IMG/VR virus record: IMGVR_UViG_2703718787_000016
Reading direction: 5' to 3' (one strand)
Length of the DNA stretch: 38,561 nucleotides
DNA from: a virus
Lineage: Duplodnaviria; Heunggongvirae; Uroviricota; Caudoviricetes
Within the stretch, counting starts at the first letter, position 1, and the number at the start of each line of letters is the position of its first letter. Positions 5,077-16,381 of the stretch are shown piece by piece. A program made the position numbers and the translations under genes. The notes under the pieces were generated by a model. That model was not told where the DNA came from. It was given only the letters and a program-made list of their open reading frames with translations, and made no database searches.

Positions 5077-6021
5077 ATGAGCAAAGAACTGTTATCCGGC
5101 ACGCCGCTTAAATGGGTGGGCGGAAAAAGTCGCATCATGAACACACTGAAGGCGCATCTGCCAGAAGCAGACTGCCTGGTTGAGCCGTTTGTGGGTGGCG
5201 CATCGGTATTCATGAACACCAGTTACAAGCGTTACATCCTGGGTGATTCCAATGGTGCGCTGATTAATTTCTACCGGCAAGCCAGGGACAACACCGACAG
5301 CCTGATCGACGAGGCGAAAACCCTGTTCCTGAACCACAACAACAGGGGTGACTATCTCATCATTCGCGAAACCTTTAACGCAGAGAATCATGCCTTCCTG
5401 AACAGCAGAACGGGAATAAGCGACCGCCGTGAACTGCGACTGGCCGCCATGTTTTTGTACCTGAACCGACACAGCTTTAACGGTTTGTTCCGCGTGAACG
5501 GAAAAGGCGATTTTAACGTGCCTTTCGGCTGCTACCGCAAGCCCTACTTCCCTGAGCGGGAAATCCGCGCATTTGCAGACAAGGCAAACAGCACCCGAAC
5601 GCTGCTTATCCACGCAGATTTTAAGGATACGCTGAACTCTGCCAGTCACCTGTTCGGCATGGGCAACACGCTTTGCGTGTACTGTGATCCCCCTTACCTG
5701 CGATTCAGTGGCCGGGACAATTTCACCGCCTACGGAAAACCATTCGATGAAGACGAGCACGTTCGTCTGAGGGCAGCGCTTGACCGCCTTTCACAGGAAA
5801 CGGGCGGCATGACCAGCATCACCATATCCAATTCCGACACACCGGAAACCAGACGCATTTATCAGGGTTACCGGATGAACGCCATCCAGGCACCACGAAG
5901 CGTTGGCGCAAGAACCCGGGAATCAGCACCGGAGGTTATCGCCACCCTGAGATGCATCACATCCGCCTTATCAACGGTTCGCACTTCTGCGCCACGAACA
6001 TGGAAGAAGTACGCGTGCTGA
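5077..6021 (+). CDS. dam: DNA adenine (N6) methyltransferase, Dam family
   Basis: N-terminal KWVGGK and FVGGASVF (SAM-binding motif I) and the catalytic DPPY motif (VYCDPPYLR). Confidence 0.9.
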   Translation: MSKELLSGTPLKWVGGKSRIMNTLKAHLPEADCLVEPFVGGASVFMNTSYKRYILGDSNGALINFYRQARDNTDSLIDEAKTLFLNHNNRGDYLIIRETFNAENHAFLNSRTGISDRRELRLAAMFLYLNRHSFNGLFRVNGKGDFNVPFGCYRKPYFPEREIRAFADKANSTRTLLIHADFKDTLNSASHLFGMGNTLCVYCDPPYLRFSGRDNFTAYGKPFDEDEHVRLRAALDRLSQETGGMTSITISNSDTPETRRIYQGYRMNAIQAPRSVGARTRESAPEVIATLRCITSALSTVRTSAPRTWKKYAC

Positions 6022-6049
6022 CAGCAACACGCAATACGGGAGGTAAAGC

Positions 6050-6400
6050 ATGGCAGTGATTTATATCGCCGGTCCCATGACCGGATGCAAAGACCACAAC
6101 AGGACGGCATTTTGCGTGGAGGACCTGAAACTTCGGTGCGCCGGAAACATCGTTCTTAATCCTGCCGTACTGCCTGACGGATTAAGCCAGCAGCAGTACA
6201 TGAGCATTTGTATTCCGATGCTCATGTGTGCCGATGCCATTTACTTACTGGAAGGCTGGGTGGATTCAGCTGGCGCGCGGGCGGAGTACGTAATGGCACT
6301 CAAACTGAACATGCCAGTGTCATTCCCGGAAAACCGGGCAGCCGGAGAAACCATCGCGCAGCTGCTTCACAAATCAAAAGCCGCACAGGCGACTGAGTAA
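6050..6400 (+). CDS. DUF4406-like (nucleoside 2-deoxyribosyltransferase-like) protein
   Basis: N-terminal MAVIYIAGPMTG motif typical of this family; immediately downstream of dam. Confidence 0.6.
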   Translation: MAVIYIAGPMTGCKDHNRTAFCVEDLKLRCAGNIVLNPAVLPDGLSQQQYMSICIPMLMCADAIYLLEGWVDSAGARAEYVMALKLNMPVSFPENRAAGETIAQLLHKSKAAQATE

Positions 6401-6838
6401 CCGACCGGAGATCGAAACATGATTGCGCGAAGAGCTGCCAACCGCCTCACAGGCTTTATTCCAGGCAAGGTTGATCATGCACTCCATCACGGGGCTGTCA
6501 CTTTCCTCAACAAAGGAGAGGCGCGCAATCATGCATTCCGGAGTGAGCACGTGGCGCTGGCTAATCAGTCTTTGATAGCTAAGCGCCTGCCATTCAGCCT
6601 TTTCAGCTCTGATAGAAAGAGAGGCAGCCATGACCTGCCACACCAGAAAGAGCACCACACTGGCGAAAACAAACGTTGCGCTGTCGCAAAAAATGAATGC
6701 GGCAACAATCGCAAGGAAAGCGCTAATCCTCAGAACCAAGGAAGCGCGACGGTGGAGAAGGCTTGTCATGTGTTCAAGCCAGTAGCTGTACCACAGGTCA
6801 AAAAGAATTTCGTAATCAGAAGGGAGCTTATCACTCAT
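6374..6838 (-). CDS. Predicted membrane protein encoded antisense to the early operon (about 154 aa)
   Basis: ATG at 6838 followed by two long hydrophobic segments (ISAFLAIVAAFIFC, FVFASVVLFLVWQVMAASL). The plus strand across this stretch has no convincing gene. Confidence 0.4.
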   Translation of the reverse strand: MSDKLPSDYEILFDLWYSYWLEHMTSLLHRRASLVLRISAFLAIVAAFIFCDSATFVFASVVLFLVWQVMAASLSIRAEKAEWQALSYQRLISQRHVLTPECMIARLSFVEESDSPVMECMINLAWNKACEAVGSSSRNHVSISGRLLSRLCGF

Positions 6839-7221
6839 CAGAAACACCCCGCGTATGCAGACAATCACCAGTTGCCAGGTGATATTAATTCGCCACATTC
6901 TAACCACATCAGCACGCAACACAAAAACCGCTTGCCAGCGCTCGTCGTGTCGGGTTACATTTCCGCTGCACCTCATAAAACGGGTGCCGGGATTTCCACC
7001 CTGCTGACTAGCAAAGCGCACTACCGCGCCAGCGGTTTTTTTGTGCGTACTGTATTGCCACGTTTTTTTCGCATCAGAATTATGGCGGGGCGTACGGGGC
7101 CGACTTCGGTCGGGCCGGGTTCTTTGCTAGCCGGTTGTGGAAACCCTGTACGTCTCGCCACCCCGAGTTTTCCACCTCCGGTTGGTGAGTTTTCAAAACT
7201 TACTAGCAAAGAGGCCACACC

Positions 7222-7443
7222 ATGGCAAACCGCAAGCAACAGCGCGCCCGCGCTGAGCGTCTTCACATCCGCAGCGAAATCAACCGCAGACTTTTCCGCG
7301 CAACACGCGTCGCGCAAATCATGCATATCAACATGCTGCATGAGCGCACGCACGCACTATCAAACCGTTACTGCGCTGCCGTCTTCAGCTATCTGGCCGA
7401 AGACCTGGCAGAACTGCAAAGCCTCATCAACCAGCACCGATAA
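7222..7443 (+). CDS. Hypothetical basic protein (73 aa)
   Basis: ATG preceded by an AGAGG Shine-Dalgarno motif; Arg-rich N-terminus. Confidence 0.4.
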   Translation: MANRKQQRARAERLHIRSEINRRLFRATRVAQIMHINMLHERTHALSNRYCAAVFSYLAEDLAELQSLINQHR

Positions 7444-7511
7444 ACCACATCCGGAAGCTATCCCACACCTGCACGCGGGAGGCTTCCGCACATCTGTTAC
7501 CGGAGGTTCTC

Positions 7512-7928
7512 ATGAAGAGCGTTAAGGGACTTTCAGATATTCAGGACTTCTTTAACTGGATGTGGGCGGTGGATCCCCTGCTGGCTTCCCGCCTGAACAA
7601 CTGGCACGACTATTACCGCCGCGCCTGTAAACAGGCCGCCCGCAGCATCACCACATACGGGGATTTCTCCTTCACCGTTGACGGTCGTTACCGCGTGGAC
7701 GTGAAAGGTGACGGTGATGGCTTTGGTTTATTTCACATCAACGGCACCGACAGTACCGCCATCAGCTGGTCATCGTCAGAGATGGCACTGGTTCTGGAAA
7801 TGACAACCCACAGCGTGGCCGTGAAAGGCATATACACCGCAGAAGACTTTATCGGTGAATACCAGCGCCTTCTCGTGCTGTACCGCGCGGCGTTTCAGGA
7901 GGTCACTGGCGGGGAGTACGACGCATGA
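7512..7928 (+). CDS. Hypothetical protein upstream of the replication gene (138 aa)
   Basis: GGAGG Shine-Dalgarno motif before the ATG; stop overlaps the gpA start (ATGA). Confidence 0.55.
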   Translation: MKSVKGLSDIQDFFNWMWAVDPLLASRLNNWHDYYRRACKQAARSITTYGDFSFTVDGRYRVDVKGDGDGFGLFHINGTDSTAISWSSSEMALVLEMTTHSVAVKGIYTAEDFIGEYQRLLVLYRAAFQEVTGGEYDA

Positions 7929-10438
7929 GTGACCGCAATGCACAGCTGGCGTACCCGTGGAACGCACCGCTACCGGTTATCGATCCTGAAACGTTCGGCA
8001 GAGCACAACCAACCGCATTACGCCAGGCCATTCAGAGCTACATCAACGAGGACATTCGCATTGATGCCAGACTGGATGAAGAAACCGTCTCCTTCCTGAC
8101 AAACACAGACGAAGGCAAGCGAATTAATTCGCATCTTCACCACGACGAAGAGCGTCGGGTCAGACTGGAAAAACTGGCGAAGCACAAACGCGAGAATCCG
8201 CCCACGGTGGTATCGGAAGCCATGGCAGAACTTCGCGCCCTGCCCTCGTTTCTTGGCAACGTGCTCATTCGTGATCTGGCGCGTTTAAACCGCAAACAAC
8301 AAAGCGCCCGCAATGAAGGCGTGAAAAACAACAACACTCACGTGGCCGATAACTTCGTTCGCCGTGGACTGCGCACACGCCTGAAACGCATCGAACAGGT
8401 GAATGAATGCTTCGCCACGACGGCATTCAAAGCCACCGCAGCGCGTCATCGCCTTGATGAATTACTCATGCTGCCACAACTCAACCGTGATCAAATTCAG
8501 CGCCTTGCCACACTAACGGCGGCGGCATTTTCCACCGAACTGGAACGCATATGTGATGAAGTTACTGAGCGGACAGGAAAAGGCGACGATAACCTGTTTA
8601 CCTGGTTGCTGACTTACCAGCAGCTGGCGCGCATGGCAATAAAACTGGGCGTGAACCCACCATACTGGCCGTCACTCGAGATCAGACGTGACCGCCGCAC
8701 GGCACCAGACCCTGAACGGGTACCGGGCGCGGTAATGCGTATCACCTGCGCCACCTGGTGGAACAACCAGCTGCGCCACCTCGCTGATCTCTGGCGGGAG
8801 GAATTACTGCGTGCCGCCGGAAGAGTATCGCGCAAGGCATCCCCCTACATCAGCCATGAGTCACTCCAGGAATTCCGGGAGAAACGCCAGCGCACCCGTG
8901 ATTTTCTCAAAAGCTGGGACATTGAAAACGAAGACGGTGAACGCCTGAGCCTGGAGGACGTGTACTGGTCAGGGCTGGGGAATCCGCGCAACCGCCGCAA
9001 CGAGATGATGGCCTGCGTCAGAGGGATGGAACAGGTCGCCGAATCGCGTGGTGACTCCGCGTTCTTCGTGACAGTGACCTGCCCTTCCCGCTTTCACAGC
9101 GTAAACGAGGACGGCAGCCTGAACCAGAAATACAACGGTGCCACCGTGCGCGATGCCAGTGATTATCTGGTTTACGACGTCTTTGCAGCTGCAAGAAAAA
9201 AACTCAACAAAGAAGGCCTGAGCTGGTACGGGGTGCGCACCGTTGAGCCACACCATGACGGCACACCGCACTGGCACATGCTGGTATTCACCGCCCCGGA
9301 CAATGAAGAACGCATCATTGAAATCATGCGTGACGCAGCAATCAAATCAGATCGCGCAGAACTGGGGAATGATATTTCTCCGCGCTTCAAGTGCGAAAAA
9401 ATCGACCCGGCAAAAGGCACACCGGCAAGCTACATCGCAACCTATATTGGCAAGAACCTGGACGCCAGCACCTTTCACGACAATGACCCGAAAACCGGCA
9501 AACCTTACGCCGATAAAGAATCGGGAAAAACCATGGCGGAAACCGTGGAAAACGCCATTGCCTGGGCGAGTCTCCACCGCATCCGGCAGTTCCAGTTCTT
9601 CGGTATCCCGCCCCGCCAGGTATGGCGTGAACTCCGCCGCCTTGCCGGACAAATGGAGCGTAACCCCGCATCACCGAAGCGCCTGGACCATGACGACATT
9701 GACGCCATTCTGGCCGCCGCTGACGTGGGGTGTTTTGCCACCTACATCAACCGTCAGGGCGGCGTGCTCATTCCACGCAACCTGTACCTGATCCGCACCG
9801 CATACGAAACCGCAGATGAGGCCAACGACTACGGCGAATTCCCGCAGCGCATCTACGGAATTTGTGCCCCGTCGCTCGGCGAGCGCTACACCATCTGCAC
9901 CCATCCGGACGAGTGGAAACTGGTCAGAAAAGAAGCGAAAGCCGACAACAGCACGGACGAGGATTTTGACGTTGGGGGCGGCTTCGCCGCACCTTGGACT
10001 CGTGGCAATAACTGTCCCCATGATGAAAAAACAGACACCGGAGAGGGTAAAACCCCACCACCGGAAACCAGGAAAGAACAAAAACTGACCATCCCGGAAG
10101 GTGATTTGAGCGAATGGTTAAGGTCACTGACCCCCACAGAGAGAAAACAACTCACCAGGCAGCTGAAAGATGCGCCATCTGACACAAAAACCGTGAAAAC
10201 CGGCGGCCCCACCACGCCCGATGACGTCATACATGTGCGTACAGCATTGCCGCTGACTGACGTCACCACCACCGTAATCAAGTCGGCACTGAGCACGACG
10301 GGCGAGGAGCTACACAGTGGCGCAGCACTTTCCGTACACAGAGGTGCACGCGTTCGCCTGCCTGACGGGCGGATTGTGCACTGGGATGAAAAATCACGAA
10401 GCCTGGTGGCAGCAGATCAACCGGAGGTTAACCCATGA
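7925..10438 (+). CDS. A: Replication initiation endonuclease, P2 gpA-like (rolling-circle HUH initiator)
   Basis: 837 aa with an HUH-type metal motif (HHDGTPHWHMLVF) and paired active-site tyrosines (YIATYIGKNL); position and size match P2 gene A. Confidence 0.92.
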   Translation: MSDRNAQLAYPWNAPLPVIDPETFGRAQPTALRQAIQSYINEDIRIDARLDEETVSFLTNTDEGKRINSHLHHDEERRVRLEKLAKHKRENPPTVVSEAMAELRALPSFLGNVLIRDLARLNRKQQSARNEGVKNNNTHVADNFVRRGLRTRLKRIEQVNECFATTAFKATAARHRLDELLMLPQLNRDQIQRLATLTAAAFSTELERICDEVTERTGKGDDNLFTWLLTYQQLARMAIKLGVNPPYWPSLEIRRDRRTAPDPERVPGAVMRITCATWWNNQLRHLADLWREELLRAAGRVSRKASPYISHESLQEFREKRQRTRDFLKSWDIENEDGERLSLEDVYWSGLGNPRNRRNEMMACVRGMEQVAESRGDSAFFVTVTCPSRFHSVNEDGSLNQKYNGATVRDASDYLVYDVFAAARKKLNKEGLSWYGVRTVEPHHDGTPHWHMLVFTAPDNEERIIEIMRDAAIKSDRAELGNDISPRFKCEKIDPAKGTPASYIATYIGKNLDASTFHDNDPKTGKPYADKESGKTMAETVENAIAWASLHRIRQFQFFGIPPRQVWRELRRLAGQMERNPASPKRLDHDDIDAILAAADVGCFATYINRQGGVLIPRNLYLIRTAYETADEANDYGEFPQRIYGICAPSLGERYTICTHPDEWKLVRKEAKADNSTDEDFDVGGGFAAPWTRGNNCPHDEKTDTGEGKTPPPETRKEQKLTIPEGDLSEWLRSLTPTERKQLTRQLKDAPSDTKTVKTGGPTTPDDVIHVRTALPLTDVTTTVIKSALSTTGEELHSGAALSVHRGARVRLPDGRIVHWDEKSRSLVAADQPEVNP

Positions 10439-10839
10439 CACGATTCCATTGCGTACTCCAGCGCCATGATTTCAGCACCATCATGAACGCACGCATTCCG
10501 GCACTGACACTGAGCGGCGTCAGTGTTCGACCGCAGCCAGGCGACGAACTGGAAATCACGATCGCCAGTCCCGATCGCAGCACAGACACCGTTATGACCG
10601 ACATCCTGACTGCAAGAATCAACACCGACAGAAGCGCATTCATCGTTGCCGTGCGCCCTCGTCGCGCCATATCAGAGCCTGAACCACTGACTCCCGTAGG
10701 AAAAATCATGCAGGCATACCACGAAAAACAGACCAGAAAACTCAACGAAGAACTGGCAAGAACGCTGGCCGTCGTTAACCGAAAAGCGGCAATTGTCCGC
10801 TATGTGCATTCGGCCGCCAGCAGGCAATCACGCAGGTAA
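10435..10839 (+). CDS. Hypothetical protein after gpA (134 aa)
   Basis: ORF overlapping the gpA stop; no motif recognised. Confidence 0.5.
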   Translation: MTRFHCVLQRHDFSTIMNARIPALTLSGVSVRPQPGDELEITIASPDRSTDTVMTDILTARINTDRSAFIVAVRPRRAISEPEPLTPVGKIMQAYHEKQTRKLNEELARTLAVVNRKAAIVRYVHSAASRQSRR

Positions 10840-10887
10840 CAAAAGACCATGAACATGACCAGAAACAGCAAACCGAAGGAGCACACC

Positions 10888-11058
10888 ATGAACGACATCA
10901 GGAGGATCAGCGACAAAGAGCTTACGAAAATGATTGAGTCGGCGCAGCAGCTGCTTTCACGACGAAATCCGGTTGTGGAAGAAACATGGTGGGAAAATTT
11001 ACTGGCAGCACTGACCGAACTCCGCGAACGCCGGAACAACGAAGGAGCCGCCAAATGA
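10888..11058 (+). CDS. Hypothetical small protein (56 aa)
   Basis: AAGGAG Shine-Dalgarno motif upstream of the ATG at 10888; stop overlaps the next start (ATGA). Confidence 0.4.
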   Translation: MNDIRRISDKELTKMIESAQQLLSRRNPVVEETWWENLLAALTELRERRNNEGAAK

Positions 11059-11393
11059 AGACACCCAGAATGACCGGAAAGGTAATCATTTTACGCTACC
11101 TGGAAACGCACGCACGCTTCAGCGCACCAGAGCTGGTTGAAAAACTGGGCGTGAAAAGGACCATCATTAATCAGGCCGCCGGGAAGATGGTACGCGAAGG
11201 GCTGCTGGTTGTGGACGGGTACACGGACAAGATAACGCATTACCGGAAGCTAACGGAAAAGGAACGACTGGAGCTGGCGCAACGGGCAGAATGGCAACAA
11301 GAGCCGTCCGTAATTGAAGCCTGCAAGCGCAGCGAAATCATGAAGCGAATTCTATTTATCTACGGCGCTGGCGAAGAGCTGCCAGTCATCTAA
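11055..11393 (+). CDS. Putative winged-helix DNA-binding protein (112 aa)
   Basis: GGAG Shine-Dalgarno motif then ATG at 11055; helix-turn-helix-like segment (SAPELVEKLGVKRTIINQAAGKMVREGLL). Assignment by pattern only. Confidence 0.45.
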   Translation: MKTPRMTGKVIILRYLETHARFSAPELVEKLGVKRTIINQAAGKMVREGLLVVDGYTDKITHYRKLTEKERLELAQRAEWQQEPSVIEACKRSEIMKRILFIYGAGEELPVI

Positions 11394-11425
11394 CCCCAAC
11401 AATAAAACCAACACGGGAGACAAAT

Positions 11426-11743
11426 ATGCCAACACAGGTTGCAACAGAGGGACGACTGGCAGCAGACCCGAACACAAGGAGAACAACCAAAGGAACCAAC
11501 GTCACAACGGCACAACTGGCGGTATCACTACCCTGCCATGGCGCAGAACAGCCAACCACAATGTGGCTTTACCTTATTGCATTCGGGAAGCAGCACGAAG
11601 AACTGGCAAAACACAGAAAAGGCGATCTGATTCTGGTGCACGGAAACTTGCAGGTAAACAGGTATCAGGACAAGTACGGGCAACAGAAAGAGGGCTGGCA
11701 GTTGCTGGCGCAAAGCATTATCAGCTCAAGAACCGGGCGATGA
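11426..11743 (+). CDS. SSB-like OB-fold protein lacking a C-terminal tail (105 aa)
   Basis: Aligns by eye to the bacterial SSB OB-fold core (EGRLAADP...T..G..V; WLYLIAFGKQHEELAKHRKGDLILVHGNL...Y.D.YGQ), with no Gly/Pro-rich linker or acidic tail. Confidence 0.6.
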   Translation: MPTQVATEGRLAADPNTRRTTKGTNVTTAQLAVSLPCHGAEQPTTMWLYLIAFGKQHEELAKHRKGDLILVHGNLQVNRYQDKYGQQKEGWQLLAQSIISSRTGR

Positions 11744-11753
11744 CTTCACGCAT

Positions 11754-11794
11754 GTTACCCTCAGCAGCGAGGGTAACACAGGATTTCTTTTTTC
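11754..11794 (+). terminator. Rho-independent terminator ending the early operon
   Basis: Perfect 9-bp stem GTTACCCTC/GAGGGTAAC with 6-nt loop, followed by a T-run (tttcttttttc). Confidence 0.5.
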
Positions 11795-12329
11795 AGTCAA
11801 ACCGAAATCGGCCGCTTGTCGCGTATGCATAGGTGACCACCGCACCCAGCGCATTCACACGCTTCTTCACATAAATCACATTACCATCCTGATAGTCACC
11901 GTATGGGTAGCAAATAAATATTGTTTTTTGCAAATCAGGATCATCAACAAATGCCCCTGAACAACTTTTTGAGCTACCGCGACTGTACTCATAGGGAGCG
12001 GAATAGAATGAATCTTCACCCGGAAGAAAATATATCAGCGTAACCAGGAGGGTAAACAGAATCATCCAGGTAAGAAGGCACATACCCGAAAAAAACTTAA
12101 GATACGATGTAACCCCGGTAAATTTAGACCGATCAACCAGGTTCTTTTTCAACAGGCACAGTGAGACAAAAACCGAAAGCACCACAGACACTGAAACAAG
12201 GCAGTTTGTCGTGAACGAATAAAGGTAGGTAATTCTGTAAACATCGTTTCGCCACCAAATAAAAAGAAAAATCCCCCCCAAAACAGAAAGCGTGACAAAA
12301 GTTAAATAAGGATATGAGTAATTTTTCAT
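11793..12329 (-). CDS. Accessory membrane protein of unknown function (178 aa; three hydrophobic segments and a Cys/Tyr-rich C-terminal domain)
   Basis: ATG at 12329; hydrophobic segments (LTFVTLSVLGGIFLFIWW, LVSVSVVLSVFVSLCLL, MCLLTWMILFTLLVTLIYFL). AT-rich codon usage unlike the neighbouring phage genes; sits between the early-operon terminator and the candidate cos. Confidence 0.55.
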   Translation of the reverse strand: MKNYSYPYLTFVTLSVLGGIFLFIWWRNDVYRITYLYSFTTNCLVSVSVVLSVFVSLCLLKKNLVDRSKFTGVTSYLKFFSGMCLLTWMILFTLLVTLIYFLPGEDSFYSAPYEYSRGSSKSCSGAFVDDPDLQKTIFICYPYGDYQDGNVIYVKKRVNALGAVVTYAYATSGRFRFD

Positions 12330-12874: not shown

Positions 12875-13378
12875 ATGAGCCATTTTCGCGATTTGTACCT
12901 GGCAAACAAAAAGAGCCGGGACGCGAGGCGGGAGGTTACAGGGATTCTGCGCAATCAGGCTGAAAAGCTGGTTGCTTTTTATGAGCAGTGGCTGGAATTG
13001 CCTTCAGAGACATGGGAAGACAAAGACGGCGAGCATCATCGTTACGTTGATACGGGGTTTCCGTGCAGAAACGATCGGGACTTCAGGCCATTTCCGGTAA
13101 ATATGATTGCAACCGACACAGATAACATATTCCGGATGGCTGTAAGAACATGGGTTGACTCACACGATGAAGGAGAGTCGGTAAACATAGTCCTGGCAAT
13201 GGAATTACATTCCGTCGGAAAAGACGGTGTATCTCTTCGGGTTCGCGTGGAAGATGATACCTCCATTCGCGTGGTCATCAACGGAGACGGTGACAGGGAA
13301 TGGCTGCCGATAGTAAACAGCATGAAGATACATATTATCAGCAAGCTGCAAAGAAGAACGCCATCCGCATTCCGTTAA
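12875..13378 (+). CDS. Accessory soluble acidic protein of unknown function (167 aa)
   Basis: Strong AAGGAG Shine-Dalgarno motif before the ATG at 12875; followed by its own terminator hairpin; no motif recognised. Confidence 0.6.
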   Translation: MSHFRDLYLANKKSRDARREVTGILRNQAEKLVAFYEQWLELPSETWEDKDGEHHRYVDTGFPCRNDRDFRPFPVNMIATDTDNIFRMAVRTWVDSHDEGESVNIVLAMELHSVGKDGVSLRVRVEDDTSIRVVINGDGDREWLPIVNSMKIHIISKLQRRTPSAFR

Positions 13379-13443: not shown

Positions 13444-14487
13444 TCAGCTGGCGTTATCCAGAAGCAGGGCATAGGGGTTAAAGCGCATCACCTCAACGCC
13501 AAGCCATTCATTGACATGCTTCATGGCCTCCATGACAGGTTGCAACTCGTTGATGAAAAACACTCTCGCCGCTTTTTCAACGTCACCAAACGCCGCATTC
13601 CCGTCAGGCATTGCCCCCATCAGTTGAGGTGGTACACGATGGGCAGCAAGGATATCGTCGCGGGCGCTCCCCTTGATGTTCAGGAATTCATCCTTTGCGG
13701 TTATCTGCTGGAACGGCAGTATTTGCACACCATCCTTGCCACCACCCGGCGCATGTAGAAACAGGTTTTTAAACGCCCCGCGACCACGGGAATCCGTAAG
13801 CGTTTTTTTAATGGCCTCGACACTTTCCGCATTCGCCTGAGATGTGCCTACATAGATAATACACCCGGCATGAGAGCCGTTATCGTAGTAGAGCTTGCGG
13901 AATGTATCCGCTGAGTTTGACAGGCTGACAGACAGCAACCCGCCGATATATTCCGGCATCCCGTAGATCTCCTGATTAATATCAGGATTAAGCACGTGGC
14001 ACACAGTCCCTTTCCTGAAACTGAACTCCGTACCGTCGTCGTTGAGATACCAGTAGGTATCCAGGTCACTTCCCCTGCGTGTATATTTTGCCAGTGCCGG
14101 GCGAAGCAGGAGTGGTTCCCCCAGCCTGTTACGCCGCACTTCAAGATAGGCATTACCAAACACAAACCAGTCGAGCGCAAACGCTGAAAACGCCTGGCGG
14201 GACAGCAGAGGGTGAGGAACAAAGCACCCGTTCAGGGCGTTGCGCTTGAAGTACAAAGCCGACTGATGCCAGGACGCACGACGGGATGCACGGGCGATAG
14301 CGTTCCAGTCCATGGGGGTATCAAAGTAGCGCCCGTTATCTGCACATGACATGTTATCCAGGAGATCCATGCGGCTGACTTCATAGGGCCCATCAAAGGT
14401 GAATGCGCTGAGTGCAGGCGTTGATTTCAGTGCATCGTGTAGCGAATCCTGCCCCCTCTTTCCGGTGTATTTTTTGCGTTTACTCAT
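13444..14487 (-). CDS. Q: Portal protein, P2 gpQ-like
   Basis: 347 aa, matching P2 Q in size and in position next to the terminase ATPase on the same strand. Confidence 0.9.
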   Translation of the reverse strand: MSKRKKYTGKRGQDSLHDALKSTPALSAFTFDGPYEVSRMDLLDNMSCADNGRYFDTPMDWNAIARASRRASWHQSALYFKRNALNGCFVPHPLLSRQAFSAFALDWFVFGNAYLEVRRNRLGEPLLLRPALAKYTRRGSDLDTYWYLNDDGTEFSFRKGTVCHVLNPDINQEIYGMPEYIGGLLSVSLSNSADTFRKLYYDNGSHAGCIIYVGTSQANAESVEAIKKTLTDSRGRGAFKNLFLHAPGGGKDGVQILPFQQITAKDEFLNIKGSARDDILAAHRVPPQLMGAMPDGNAAFGDVEKAARVFFINELQPVMEAMKHVNEWLGVEVMRFNPYALLLDNAS

Positions 14488-14492
14488 TGTGT

Positions 14493-16241
14493 TCAGAACT
14501 CCATTGCAAAGCCGCGATTATCCTCACGCTCCGCACCAATTGGCTCATTGATAACAGCAAGCATGGTTGCCCAGGCGAGGTCACCATGGCTGACGCCACG
14601 GGAGCGGTCGGTGTCGTAGGTGATATAGCCGCCGGGTGTCTGTATTTTTCGCACCGATGCGAATGCCTGGATCAGGTCACGTTCACTGCGGTCATACTCC
14701 CAGCGTCCGGCACGCACCACCTGAAGCATTTTCATGACCAGTGCCCGCTTGGAGGCGATATTGAAGTTGTACGGTACGGCCATCGGGAAAAACTTTTTCA
14801 CAATCTGATAAACCCCCTCCCCGTTCCCGCCGGTCACATCAATGCCGATATGTTTCACGTTATATTTTTGGGTGTATTCCTCAATCAGTGCGGCCTGCTG
14901 TTCAAACTCCATCCCCTGAACCCTGACAGTTTCCACCGTGCGAAAACGCCCACCGGCAACAAGGGGCGGCACGCACACCGACAGTGCCCCGCAGTCCCCC
15001 TTCCCGCTGCTGCCGTTGGCGTCATACCCAAGCCAGACCTCCCTCACCCCCATAGGGCGGGCAGCAAAAGGTTTCCAGTCAGGCCATTCGTCATAGCCGT
15101 CAACACCGCAGCCGGTGAGCGCACTCAGGCTGAAGGCTGCCTCACCATCACGGACAAATTCGCACATGTACAGATTACGAAATTCACTTTCTGTATTTTC
15201 GCTGCGAATAACACCAATATTGGTGTACCGCCATCCGTTAGCGACAGCATCCTCAATAGTGACAATCTGCCGCCATGTTTCGTCAGGAAAGAGCACGCCC
15301 CCCTTCAGATGCGCATGTGAAACATCAAACTCACTGCGTTTTGAGCGTGGCTGTTCGCTGTTCCAGCGGTCCCCCGTCCAGAACTGATACGCCTCATGTG
15401 TTTCACCTGACGGTGTTGAAAAGTAGGTTCGCGTAAGCCCTTCCAGTGTCGCCATTGCCCCAGCAACCTTCCTGAGTTCCACAAAGTTACTGACCCAAAA
15501 AAATTCATCAAATTTAAGGTGTCCGGTATACGACTGAGCGGTTGCTGCCGATGTGCCAAGGAAGTGAAGCTCTGCACCGTTAGACAAAACAATCTTGTCA
15601 CCCCCTTTCAGTTCGACATCAACTTCCAGCGCCGCCTGCTGAATAAAGTGTTTGAACTGATACGCCTGGCGACGGGATGCGGACAAAAATATCTGGTTGC
15701 GCTGGTACCCGGCGGAGACATCATCACGCAGTGCATCAAGGAGTGCTTCGCGCGCAAAATACCAGGTCGCACCAATCTGACGCGACTTCAGGATCATGCG
15801 GTTGCGGTGATGGCGGTTGTCGTACCATTCGCGCTGATGCCAGGCCAGTGACGGCAGGATTTTTTCCCTGAGTGCGACAATCTGCTCTTCGGTGAAGTGA
15901 TTTTTCAGTTTGCGCCTGCGGGGCTTCTTACCGGAAACAGCCTGTTCTCCCTGACCGTCATTCAGTTTTTTCAGCTGGCGCGTCAGCAGGTCAATTTCCT
16001 TAAAGTCACCGCCGCTTTTATCCGGTTTGGCGGTGAGCTGTATCAGGCGTGCATCAATGGACTGGGTGACCCGCTGGATCGGGGGAGTGGCATCCCACTC
16101 ATCGCGTTTTTTCCACGAATAAATCGTGTTCTGGTTTATTCCCATCAGCTGAGCGATATCCGCCGGGGTATACCCCTGCCAGTAAAGCTGTTTCGCCCGC
16201 ATACGAATAAAGACATCCTGGATCATTGCACCCCCTGACAT
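14493..16241 (-). CDS. P: Terminase large (ATPase) subunit, P2 gpP-like
   Basis: Large ORF divergent from the scaffold gene, in the P2 Q-P arrangement. Start taken as ATG 16241; an alternative ATG at 16226 has a better GGGGGTG Shine-Dalgarno motif. Confidence 0.92.
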   Translation of the reverse strand: MSGGAMIQDVFIRMRAKQLYWQGYTPADIAQLMGINQNTIYSWKKRDEWDATPPIQRVTQSIDARLIQLTAKPDKSGGDFKEIDLLTRQLKKLNDGQGEQAVSGKKPRRRKLKNHFTEEQIVALREKILPSLAWHQREWYDNRHHRNRMILKSRQIGATWYFAREALLDALRDDVSAGYQRNQIFLSASRRQAYQFKHFIQQAALEVDVELKGGDKIVLSNGAELHFLGTSAATAQSYTGHLKFDEFFWVSNFVELRKVAGAMATLEGLTRTYFSTPSGETHEAYQFWTGDRWNSEQPRSKRSEFDVSHAHLKGGVLFPDETWRQIVTIEDAVANGWRYTNIGVIRSENTESEFRNLYMCEFVRDGEAAFSLSALTGCGVDGYDEWPDWKPFAARPMGVREVWLGYDANGSSGKGDCGALSVCVPPLVAGGRFRTVETVRVQGMEFEQQAALIEEYTQKYNVKHIGIDVTGGNGEGVYQIVKKFFPMAVPYNFNIASKRALVMKMLQVVRAGRWEYDRSERDLIQAFASVRKIQTPGGYITYDTDRSRGVSHGDLAWATMLAVINEPIGAEREDNRGFAMEF

Positions 16242-16291
16242 TAACAGGGCAAGATTAAGCCTCAGCAATACCGCCTGATACCAGCCCGCGT

Positions 16292-16309
16292 TGTCCCCGT
16301 CGCCATACA
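16292..16309. promoter_or_regulatory. TGT-N12-ACA element in the divergent P/O late promoter region (candidate Ogr binding site)
   Basis: TGTccccgtcgccatACA sits between the divergent P and O starts, matching the dyad consensus of P2-family late promoters. Confidence 0.5.
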
Positions 16310-16381
16310 ACTTAAGCACCTTGAGACACACCGTTATCTGCCGCCATCATGGGAAAAACGACCAGGTTATGGAGAATTTCC

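Follow-up and report, generated by a model that had tools for sequence, protein, structure and literature searches.

What does a phage do with an SSB (a protein that binds single-stranded DNA) that consists of the DNA-binding core and nothing else? The question is raised by a short open reading frame (ORF) in the IMG/VR virus record IMGVR_UViG_2703718787_000016, a stretch of 38,561 nucleotides that is referred to below as the window. More than a dozen host proteins of DNA maintenance dock on SSB tails, and an original prediction, made from the letters alone, had aligned the 105-residue product of this ORF by eye to the OB-fold core of SSBs and noted that it stops short of the Gly/Pro-rich linker and the acidic tip. 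Our analysis shows that the gene encodes a naturally tail-less, phage-borne SSB core derived from the SSBs of satellite elements. Among the uses to which such a protein could be put, we tentatively prefer, at a little short of an even chance, a lytic-cycle protein that would coat the single-stranded DNA (ssDNA) of the phage without engaging the host SSB partner network.

The gene is real and its family assignment is already on record, in that at least 27 complete Escherichia coli genomes contain the same 318-bp ORF under the PGAP name 'single-stranded DNA-binding protein', although neither the loss of the tail nor the function is discussed there. A profile search and a structure prediction both bore out the alignment that had been made by eye. 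The protein matched Pfam PF00436 with 54.4 bits (cutoff 26; E 1.5e-14) over profile positions 3-100 of 104 and PHROG 44 (8.8e-25), the entry for 'single strand DNA binding protein', and phmmer matched it to 27 SSB chains in the PDB. The AlphaFold2 model, a monomer prediction built on an alignment of 92 sequences, had a mean pLDDT of 94.1 and consisted of a five-strand OB barrel and one helix. When this model was compared with the PDB in Foldseek, the best 50 matches were all SSBs (probability 1.00, TM 0.67-0.81), with SsbA, SsbB and the chymotryptic core of E. coli SSB (1EYG) among the top matches. Residues W47, F53 and Y80 align with W54, F60 and W88 of E. coli SSB, which are three of its four aromatic residues that stack on ssDNA (the fourth, W40, is matched by Cys37), and a hand count from the translation gave 13 Lys and Arg against 8 Asp and Glu. 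Identity as PriB was considered and rejected, the TIGR04418 PriB_gamma model scoring 14.2 bits against a cutoff of 72, with 16% identity to E. coli PriB and far better scores for the SSB models. PADLOC returned no match that would make the protein a component of a known defence system. A tblastn search with the SSB gave no close relative among sequenced phages, the sole matches being about 35% identical and from Faecalibacterium phages.

In an alignment with E. coli SSB its end falls near residue 115, which is the boundary between the OB domain and the linker, and after its terminal ...SSRTGR there is neither a linker nor an acidic tip of the DDDIPF type, just as had been proposed. TIGR00621, the model for full-length SSBs, scored 49.6 bits, under its cutoff of 53.95. 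With tailed relatives as tblastn queries only residues 1-106 could be aligned, and none of the three downstream frames contained an acidic tip. The original prediction had allowed that a frameshift or an assembly error might conceal a normal tail; this is excluded, since the same ORF recurs in the at least 27 complete genomes, no tail lies downstream and the stop is common to three diverged lineages.

Over the 2.2 kb around the SSB gene, the window shares 99.9% identity with a prophage in the chromosome of E. coli STEC2018-607 (L001), and of 5426 complete E. coli genomes 38 have similar copies of the region. In the STEC2018-607 copy, integrase and repressor are followed by early genes, the 'replication endonuclease' gene (A), four small genes and variable genes, and then by those for portal, terminase, capsid and tail, an order that identifies it as a P2-like prophage. 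The three E. coli lineages of the tail-less SSB are 76-99% identical, all 105 residues long and all ending in ...RT(G/A)(R/I) with a stop at codon 106. The gene is under purifying selection, with dN/dS of 0.16-0.32 at dS of up to 0.85 among the three lineages, which is comparable to the omega of 0.04-0.23 in the OB domain of tailed relatives, and the sequences indicate that the missing tail is ancestral and maintained. DNA similarity between the lineages stops at the SSB stop codon, beyond which lie three unrelated cargos, namely a low-GC gene on the opposite strand for a probable membrane protein in the window, and a TumE/HVO_A0114 pair or a DUF4760 gene elsewhere. One allele, from E. coli strain Bongo (L058, 3372-3629) and also from JNEC-KY174, is shorter by 20 codons that were lost in frame between two '(G)RLA' repeats, a deletion that removes part of the OB barrel.

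Comparison of syntenic prophages showed that the gene is an optional cassette. Two of them share the order A-orf134-orf65/69-Ren and have no SSB, the Ren-like gene being followed directly by cargo in one (L006) and by ogr and the portal gene in the other (L005), and in a third (L004) the SSB gene sits between the Ren-like gene and the same TumE cargo as in L006. The SSB gene is thus present or absent as a unit and opens the variable part, at the inner edge, of the interval between A and the portal gene Q (gpA-gpQ), which is a published P2 defence hotspot (Rousset et al. 2022, PMC9122126). The variability expected downstream of A was therefore seen; of the claim that the SSB gene is the last of the early operon, the distal position in a P2-like prophage held, but the gene is not a fixed member of that operon. 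A pattern of this kind could also be left by a functionless remnant, that is, an SSB gene cut by cargo insertion and drifting to loss, for which one may cite the end of inter-lineage similarity at the very stop codon that different cargos abut, the existence of decay variants and the absence of the gene from sister prophages. We regard this as very unlikely given that the 105-codon frame is intact in three lineages under a constraint like that of the tailed relatives, that the cut falls cleanly at a domain boundary and that the ribosome-binding site is retained.

The ancestry of the protein is best seen in its closest longer relatives, which are 136-156 residues long and 47-55% identical to it across the OB domain. 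They have in common with it the motifs ...AVSLPC... and ...SARTxR, and in them the second motif is followed by a linker that ends in ...PPFDDExPF or ...YDDDF, the canonical SSB tip. We surveyed the surroundings of such relatives at 48 loci, taking one genome per species, mostly from Enterobacterales. Most of the tailed SSB genes lay directly downstream of a Toprim/DUF927 primase gene, in islands inserted at tRNA genes with the order integrase, AlpA-like regulator, (Icd), primase, SSB, (ProQ/FinO) and PerC, and none of the 48 loci had a P2-type A or a Ren gene near the tailed SSB. Gram-negative satellites of the phage-inducible chromosomal island (PICI) type have the same architecture, and their primase and SSB have been placed in the replication module (PMC10111431; PMC11773190). 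Relatives of the tailed SSB gene were present in 1797 of the 5426 complete E. coli genomes (about a third), and one strain, LZSFT34, holds both a 136-residue tailed copy and the tail-less prophage copy. The LZSFT34 island is about 7.6 kb long, sits at tRNA-Pro (L061, NZ_CP132728 1130386-1138084) and reads integrase, HTH regulator, Icd-like, DUF4222, primase, SSB (136 aa, tailed), PerC. Among 150 representative relatives from a library of 1.8 billion proteins, most end with a DD(x)(I/L)PF-type tip and a minority (for example, proteins of 104-119 residues) have none, which indicates that tail loss recurs in this SSB subfamily. Three Klebsiella islands (L002 8472-8804, L018 7484-7792 and L050 7528-7779) carry, 30-85 nt downstream of the tailed SSB gene, a fragment of a P2-type portal gene that corresponds to the C-terminal approximately 100 residues and is 55% identical to Q of the window. 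These fragments hint at past recombination between primase islands and P2-like phages near cos.

With relatives of this kind, the protein might be a weapon against competing replicons, forming mixed oligomers with the tailed SSB of a PICI, or out-competing that SSB, or the SSB of a superinfecting phage, on ssDNA. The primase or replisome of the competitor would then be starved of tail contacts, and the phage protein would act as a dominant-negative anti-satellite or anti-superinfection factor. Its identity to the primase-adjacent SSBs of PICI-like islands, the number of E. coli genomes with tailed relatives and the coexistence of tailed and tail-less copies in LZSFT34 are all consistent with such a role, and so is the P2 hotspot gene tin, which is annotated as blocking the growth of T-even phages. 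Tin acts by poisoning the T4 SSB, gp32. The hotspot is known for genes of conflict between elements (PMC9122126). However, any use of P2-like helpers by the islands, or rivalry with them, is supposition, hetero-oligomerisation at about 50% identity is an assumption, and a position in an early lytic operon suits self-replication equally. The protein also has no homology to Tin and matched no PADLOC defence model, and we consider the role of a weapon decidedly unlikely.

The timing of expression is suggested by the layout of the operon, the features of which are collected in Table 1.

Table 1. Features of the early operon and of the interval up to the portal and terminase genes, in window coordinates.
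Feature	Position	Strand	Size	Matches and remarks
215-aa ORF	6374-7021	-	215 aa	Equivalent to L001 7975-8622; annotated hypothetical
Replication initiator A	7925..10438	+	837 aa	Pfam Phage_GPA PF05840, 2.2e-108; PGAP 'replication endonuclease'
orf134	10435..10839	+		PHROG 14984, 5.8e-80; start overlaps A stop codon by 4 nt
orf69	10849..11058	+		PHROG 14672, 1.1e-34; stop overlaps start of Ren-like gene (ATGA)
Ren-like winged-helix protein	11055..11393	+	112 aa	PHROG 142; ATGA overlap with upstream ORF
Shine-Dalgarno GGGAG of SSB gene	11415..11419	+		6 nt upstream of ATG; inside the 32-nt intergenic gap
Tail-less SSB-family OB-fold protein	11426..11743	+	105 aa	318-bp ORF; PF00436
Hairpin and T-run	11753..11793	+		Hairpin 11753-11778, 10-bp stem 11753-11762/11769-11778, then TTTCTTTTTT; T-run 11784-11793
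Convergent cargo gene	11793..12329	-	178 aa	PGAP WP_000801013; PHROG 1416; 540-bp upstream gap to 12870
167-aa ORF	12875-13378	+	167 aa	PHROG 5091
Q (portal)	13444-14487			gpQ end of the gpA-gpQ interval
Large terminase ORF	14493-16331	-		Intact in the window

From A to the SSB gene all genes lie on one strand, with overlaps of 4 nt or gaps of at most 32 nt, and the SSB gene is the last on the strand of the early operon. The 32-nt gap before it is too short to hold a promoter of its own, and a crude consensus scan predicted no sigma-70-like site on the plus strand between 10300 and 13500. The hairpin that follows the SSB gene folds as RNA with -18.7 kcal/mol (z = -3.4 against shuffles) and, together with its T-run, is the probable end of the early transcript; a simple terminator scan missed it, since 5 nt separate the stem from the T-run. 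The SSB gene matches the operon in GC content, at about 0.52, as against 0.40-0.45 for the convergent gene. The latter encodes a protein that had no Pfam, PADLOC or NCBIfam match and that is probably a membrane protein, since its translation contains several hydrophobic segments. In the P2 record, orf91 extends the A operon on the same strand, and the lysogenic-conversion genes tin and old, expressed in the lysogen, are transcribed in the other direction from mapped starts of their own. By analogy, the SSB would be a lytic-cycle product, made in the lytic cycle and not in the lysogen as far as the layout can tell, and the convergent low-GC gene, which is the actual variable hotspot cargo of this prophage, would be expressed in the lysogen and is a candidate for an exclusion gene there.

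The same analogy bears on the possibility that the SSB is itself a superinfection-exclusion protein of the lysogen, a hotspot defence cargo like tin and old that binds and blocks foreign ssDNA, whether incoming or replicating. The gene does lie between gpA and gpQ and is polymorphic for presence and absence, and its accession, WP_032330903, appears in the hotspot locus table in the supplement of Rousset et al. (PMC9122126), in rows of the form 'hypothetical + SSB + hypothetical...', with the main text silent on SSB. Nevertheless, it stands on the early-operon strand, 32 nt behind the preceding gene and with no predicted promoter, whereas the P2 defence genes are on the opposite strand with a promoter of their own; its GC content agrees with that of the operon, unlike the adjoining low-GC cargo, and PADLOC did not recognise it. 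An exclusion role in the lysogen therefore appears highly improbable. The evidence favours a lytic-cycle function over a lysogen-expressed defence, without discriminating among an aid to replication, a decoy and an inhibitor of competitors.

The gene directly upstream had been described as encoding a small putative winged-helix protein, and this description was right as to the fold but not as to the kind of protein, which is no generic regulator. The 112-residue product matched PHROG 142 (1.4e-28; positions 8-112 of the 116 in the profile), the family named 'Ren-like exclusion protein', and in BLASTP it was 42% identical to lambda Ren over nearly its whole length (E 3e-24). A tblastn search found it in 170 lambdoid phage records, always at ren, which overlaps the end of P. 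Pfam models of winged helix-turn-helix (wHTH) domains scored below their cutoffs (MarR_2, 25.0 bits with a cutoff of 27; MarR, 13.1 bits with a cutoff of 24.6), and the AlphaFold2 model showed a helix-helix-helix-wing topology, with a pLDDT of 60 overall on a shallow alignment and of 70-78 over residues 11-50. The PGAP label 'MarR family' was set aside as over-specific, being based on a sub-threshold match to the wHTH core at residues 10-53 only. Judged by these matches, the neighbour of the SSB is a full-length homologue of lambda Ren. The naming of Ren as an exclusion protein or Rex inhibitor stems from PHROG and GenBank records, and lambda Ren has been described as co-transcribed with O and P, as 'likely involved in DNA replication' and as a two-hybrid partner of Rex proteins (Thomason et al., bioRxiv 10.1101/2021.04.19.439022). 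With a Ren homologue and a satellite-type SSB side by side, the end of the operon is a mosaic in which a replication-associated gene of lambdoid type adjoins a replication gene of satellites.

This neighbourhood raises the possibility of counter-defence, in which the SSB would be a decoy or shield that masks phage ssDNA or replication intermediates from abortive-infection sensors of ssDNA, of SSB-Ct partners or of phage SSBs, such as Rex-type systems, retrons and DRT, as one half of an anti-exclusion pair with the Ren homologue. The two genes adjoin and are apparently co-transcribed, the records attach an anti-exclusion function to Ren, and phage SSBs set off several defence systems; the accessory status of the gene, its variable region and its presumed early expression would, by analogy, also fit. 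The proposed trigger of DRT10 carries a C-tip motif (bioRxiv 10.64898/2026.04.29.721553), and loss of the tip could dodge sensing of the DRT10 type. In contrast, the sensing of T7 SSB by Retron-Eco8 needs the OB fold and oligomerisation and is unaffected by deletion of the tail (bioRxiv 10.1101/2025.11.11.687766), and an additional OB-fold SSB would be as likely to trigger Retron-Eco8 as to evade it. Given one sensor that is independent of the tail and another whose trigger has a C-tip, loss of the tail is therefore no general route of evasion. Moreover, the molecular function of Ren has long been obscure, and Ren-like genes without an SSB in L005 and L006 show that the pair is not obligate. 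On balance we find counter-defence rather unlikely. A bolder scenario, in which a helper-type P2-like phage took the SSB of a satellite, removed its tail and turned it into an early dominant-negative poison for the replication of satellites or phages in need of a tailed SSB, or into a shield of phage ssDNA against tip-dependent host nucleases and abortive-infection sensors, beside a Ren-type anti-exclusion protein, seems to us quite unlikely.

We return to the lytic-cycle protein that coats phage ssDNA apart from the host partner network, which would account for these observations as follows. The SSB core descends from a tailed SSB encoded beside the primase in PICI-like islands and would have been captured from another mobile element, and the linker and acidic tip would have been lost together, once and in the common ancestor, by a cut precisely between OB domain and linker. 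As its gene follows A and the Ren homologue, the protein would be translated from the early transcript, that of replication, and so made in lytic growth. It would oligomerise as other SSBs do and coat the ssDNA displaced by A-initiated rolling-circle replication. An SSB without the C-terminal tip cannot dock the host proteins that use it, so that ExoI, RecJ, RecQ, RecO, PriA, Ung and the chi subunit of Pol III would find no docking site, and phage ssDNA would be shielded and kept from the host repair, recombination and nuclease pathways. The SSB and the Ren homologue would then make up a small module at the end of the early operon, dispensable but protective of replication.

Several observations weigh against this proposal. 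The gene is dispensable, as the syntenic prophages without it demonstrate, and rare, occurring in about 0.5% of complete E. coli genomes, and in some lineages it has decayed, with frameshifted forms (P0017 and P0020) and the in-frame deletion in two genomes. At the position of E. coli SSB W40 the protein has Cys37, a substitution that the tailed relatives share. The promoter scan was a crude consensus search, which leaves room for expression in the lysogen. Finally, loss of the tail could have been a mere by-product of cargo insertion, in which case the protein would be an extra SSB with no benefit from 'insulation'.

As to the remaining genes, A is the upstream anchor of both the early operon and the gpA-gpQ hotspot. 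The A protein of the window shares no more than 52% identity with those of the phages in INPHARED, the nearest being those of P88-like phages, and hence represents a P2-like lineage without a sequenced phage isolate; a megablast search of INPHARED with the 2.2-kb region likewise gave no matching sequenced phage at the DNA level. The A protein is also longer than A of P2 (2286 bp, about 761 aa), and the best phage matches span residues 6-749 only, leaving the last approximately 90 residues unmatched in them. Orf134, for which Pfam gave no match, is kept in L004, L005 and L006. At the other end of the interval, the 167-aa ORF has no match in Pfam and is found beside the portal gene in every lineage examined (L001, L004, L006 and L059) whatever the cargo, and looks like a core gene near cos. 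A search with the P2 cos 19-mer, intended to place cos relative to the cassette, was dropped, having yielded no match at up to three mismatches and no exact match in any of the fetched loci but P2. The large terminase ORF of the window is annotated as frameshifted at 16094-17826 of the otherwise 99.9% identical STEC2018-607 locus. Upstream of A, the 215-aa ORF lies within the early region on the opposite strand and may be another inserted accessory gene. In the early region of the STEC2018-607 prophage, which is of the same type, PGAP annotates a 3'-5' exonuclease, a ParE-like toxin-like protein and a DNA adenine methylase at 5863-7622; these are further accessory genes of DNA metabolism that share a transcript with A, Ren and the SSB.

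Phage SSBs are emerging as triggers of several defence systems, and a natural, selected, phage-borne SSB without a tail, with tailed sisters in satellites of the same species, offers a ready-made test of the role of the tail in conflicts between mobile elements. Lambda Ren gains a second genomic context, in which a replication operon likewise ends with it. If the SSB only adds to the coating of ssDNA, it is an ordinary accessory gene.

Set beside known systems, the locus has its nearest positional counterpart in the orf91/tin/old region of P2, where the same slot holds a short continuation of the A operon and then variable cargo before cos and Q; going by the annotation of P2, in which orf91 is a DUF3850 protein, Tin blocks T-even growth and Old is an AAA ATPase, that region differs in having no SSB. 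The Ren homologue resembles lambda Ren in that its gene comes directly after replication genes and, like ren with P, overlaps the ORF before it, but it belongs to a P2-like (Peduoviridae) genome, follows a rolling-circle initiator rather than O and P, and has extra N- and C-terminal residues. PriB (104 aa), an SSB-derived primosome protein, is similar to the tail-less SSB in length, in its SSB-like OB fold and in lacking a tail, but the 105-residue protein is not a member of that family. The core of E. coli SSB (SSBc, about residues 1-115, 1EYG) has the same OB fold (Foldseek TM about 0.7) and the same end point, but the two are only about 27% identical, W40 and H55 are replaced by Cys and Leu, and SSBc is a proteolytic fragment whereas the 105-residue protein is a natural gene product. 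The closest sequence family, over the whole OB domain, is that of the PICI-like island SSBs, which have a linker and tip and follow a primase gene, whereas the tail-less SSB has neither and comes after an A gene of P2 type and a Ren homologue. SsbB of Bacillus subtilis (113 aa) is likewise a naturally tail-less SSB paralogue, and staphylococcal SsbB structures were among the top Foldseek matches of our protein; it differs in being a chromosomal competence gene product of Firmicutes with an independent loss of the tail and no phage context. SsbB protects ssDNA without tail-mediated partner contacts (PMC3384303), and it is the characterised analogue, and the precedent, for the tail-less protection of ssDNA that we propose for the phage protein.

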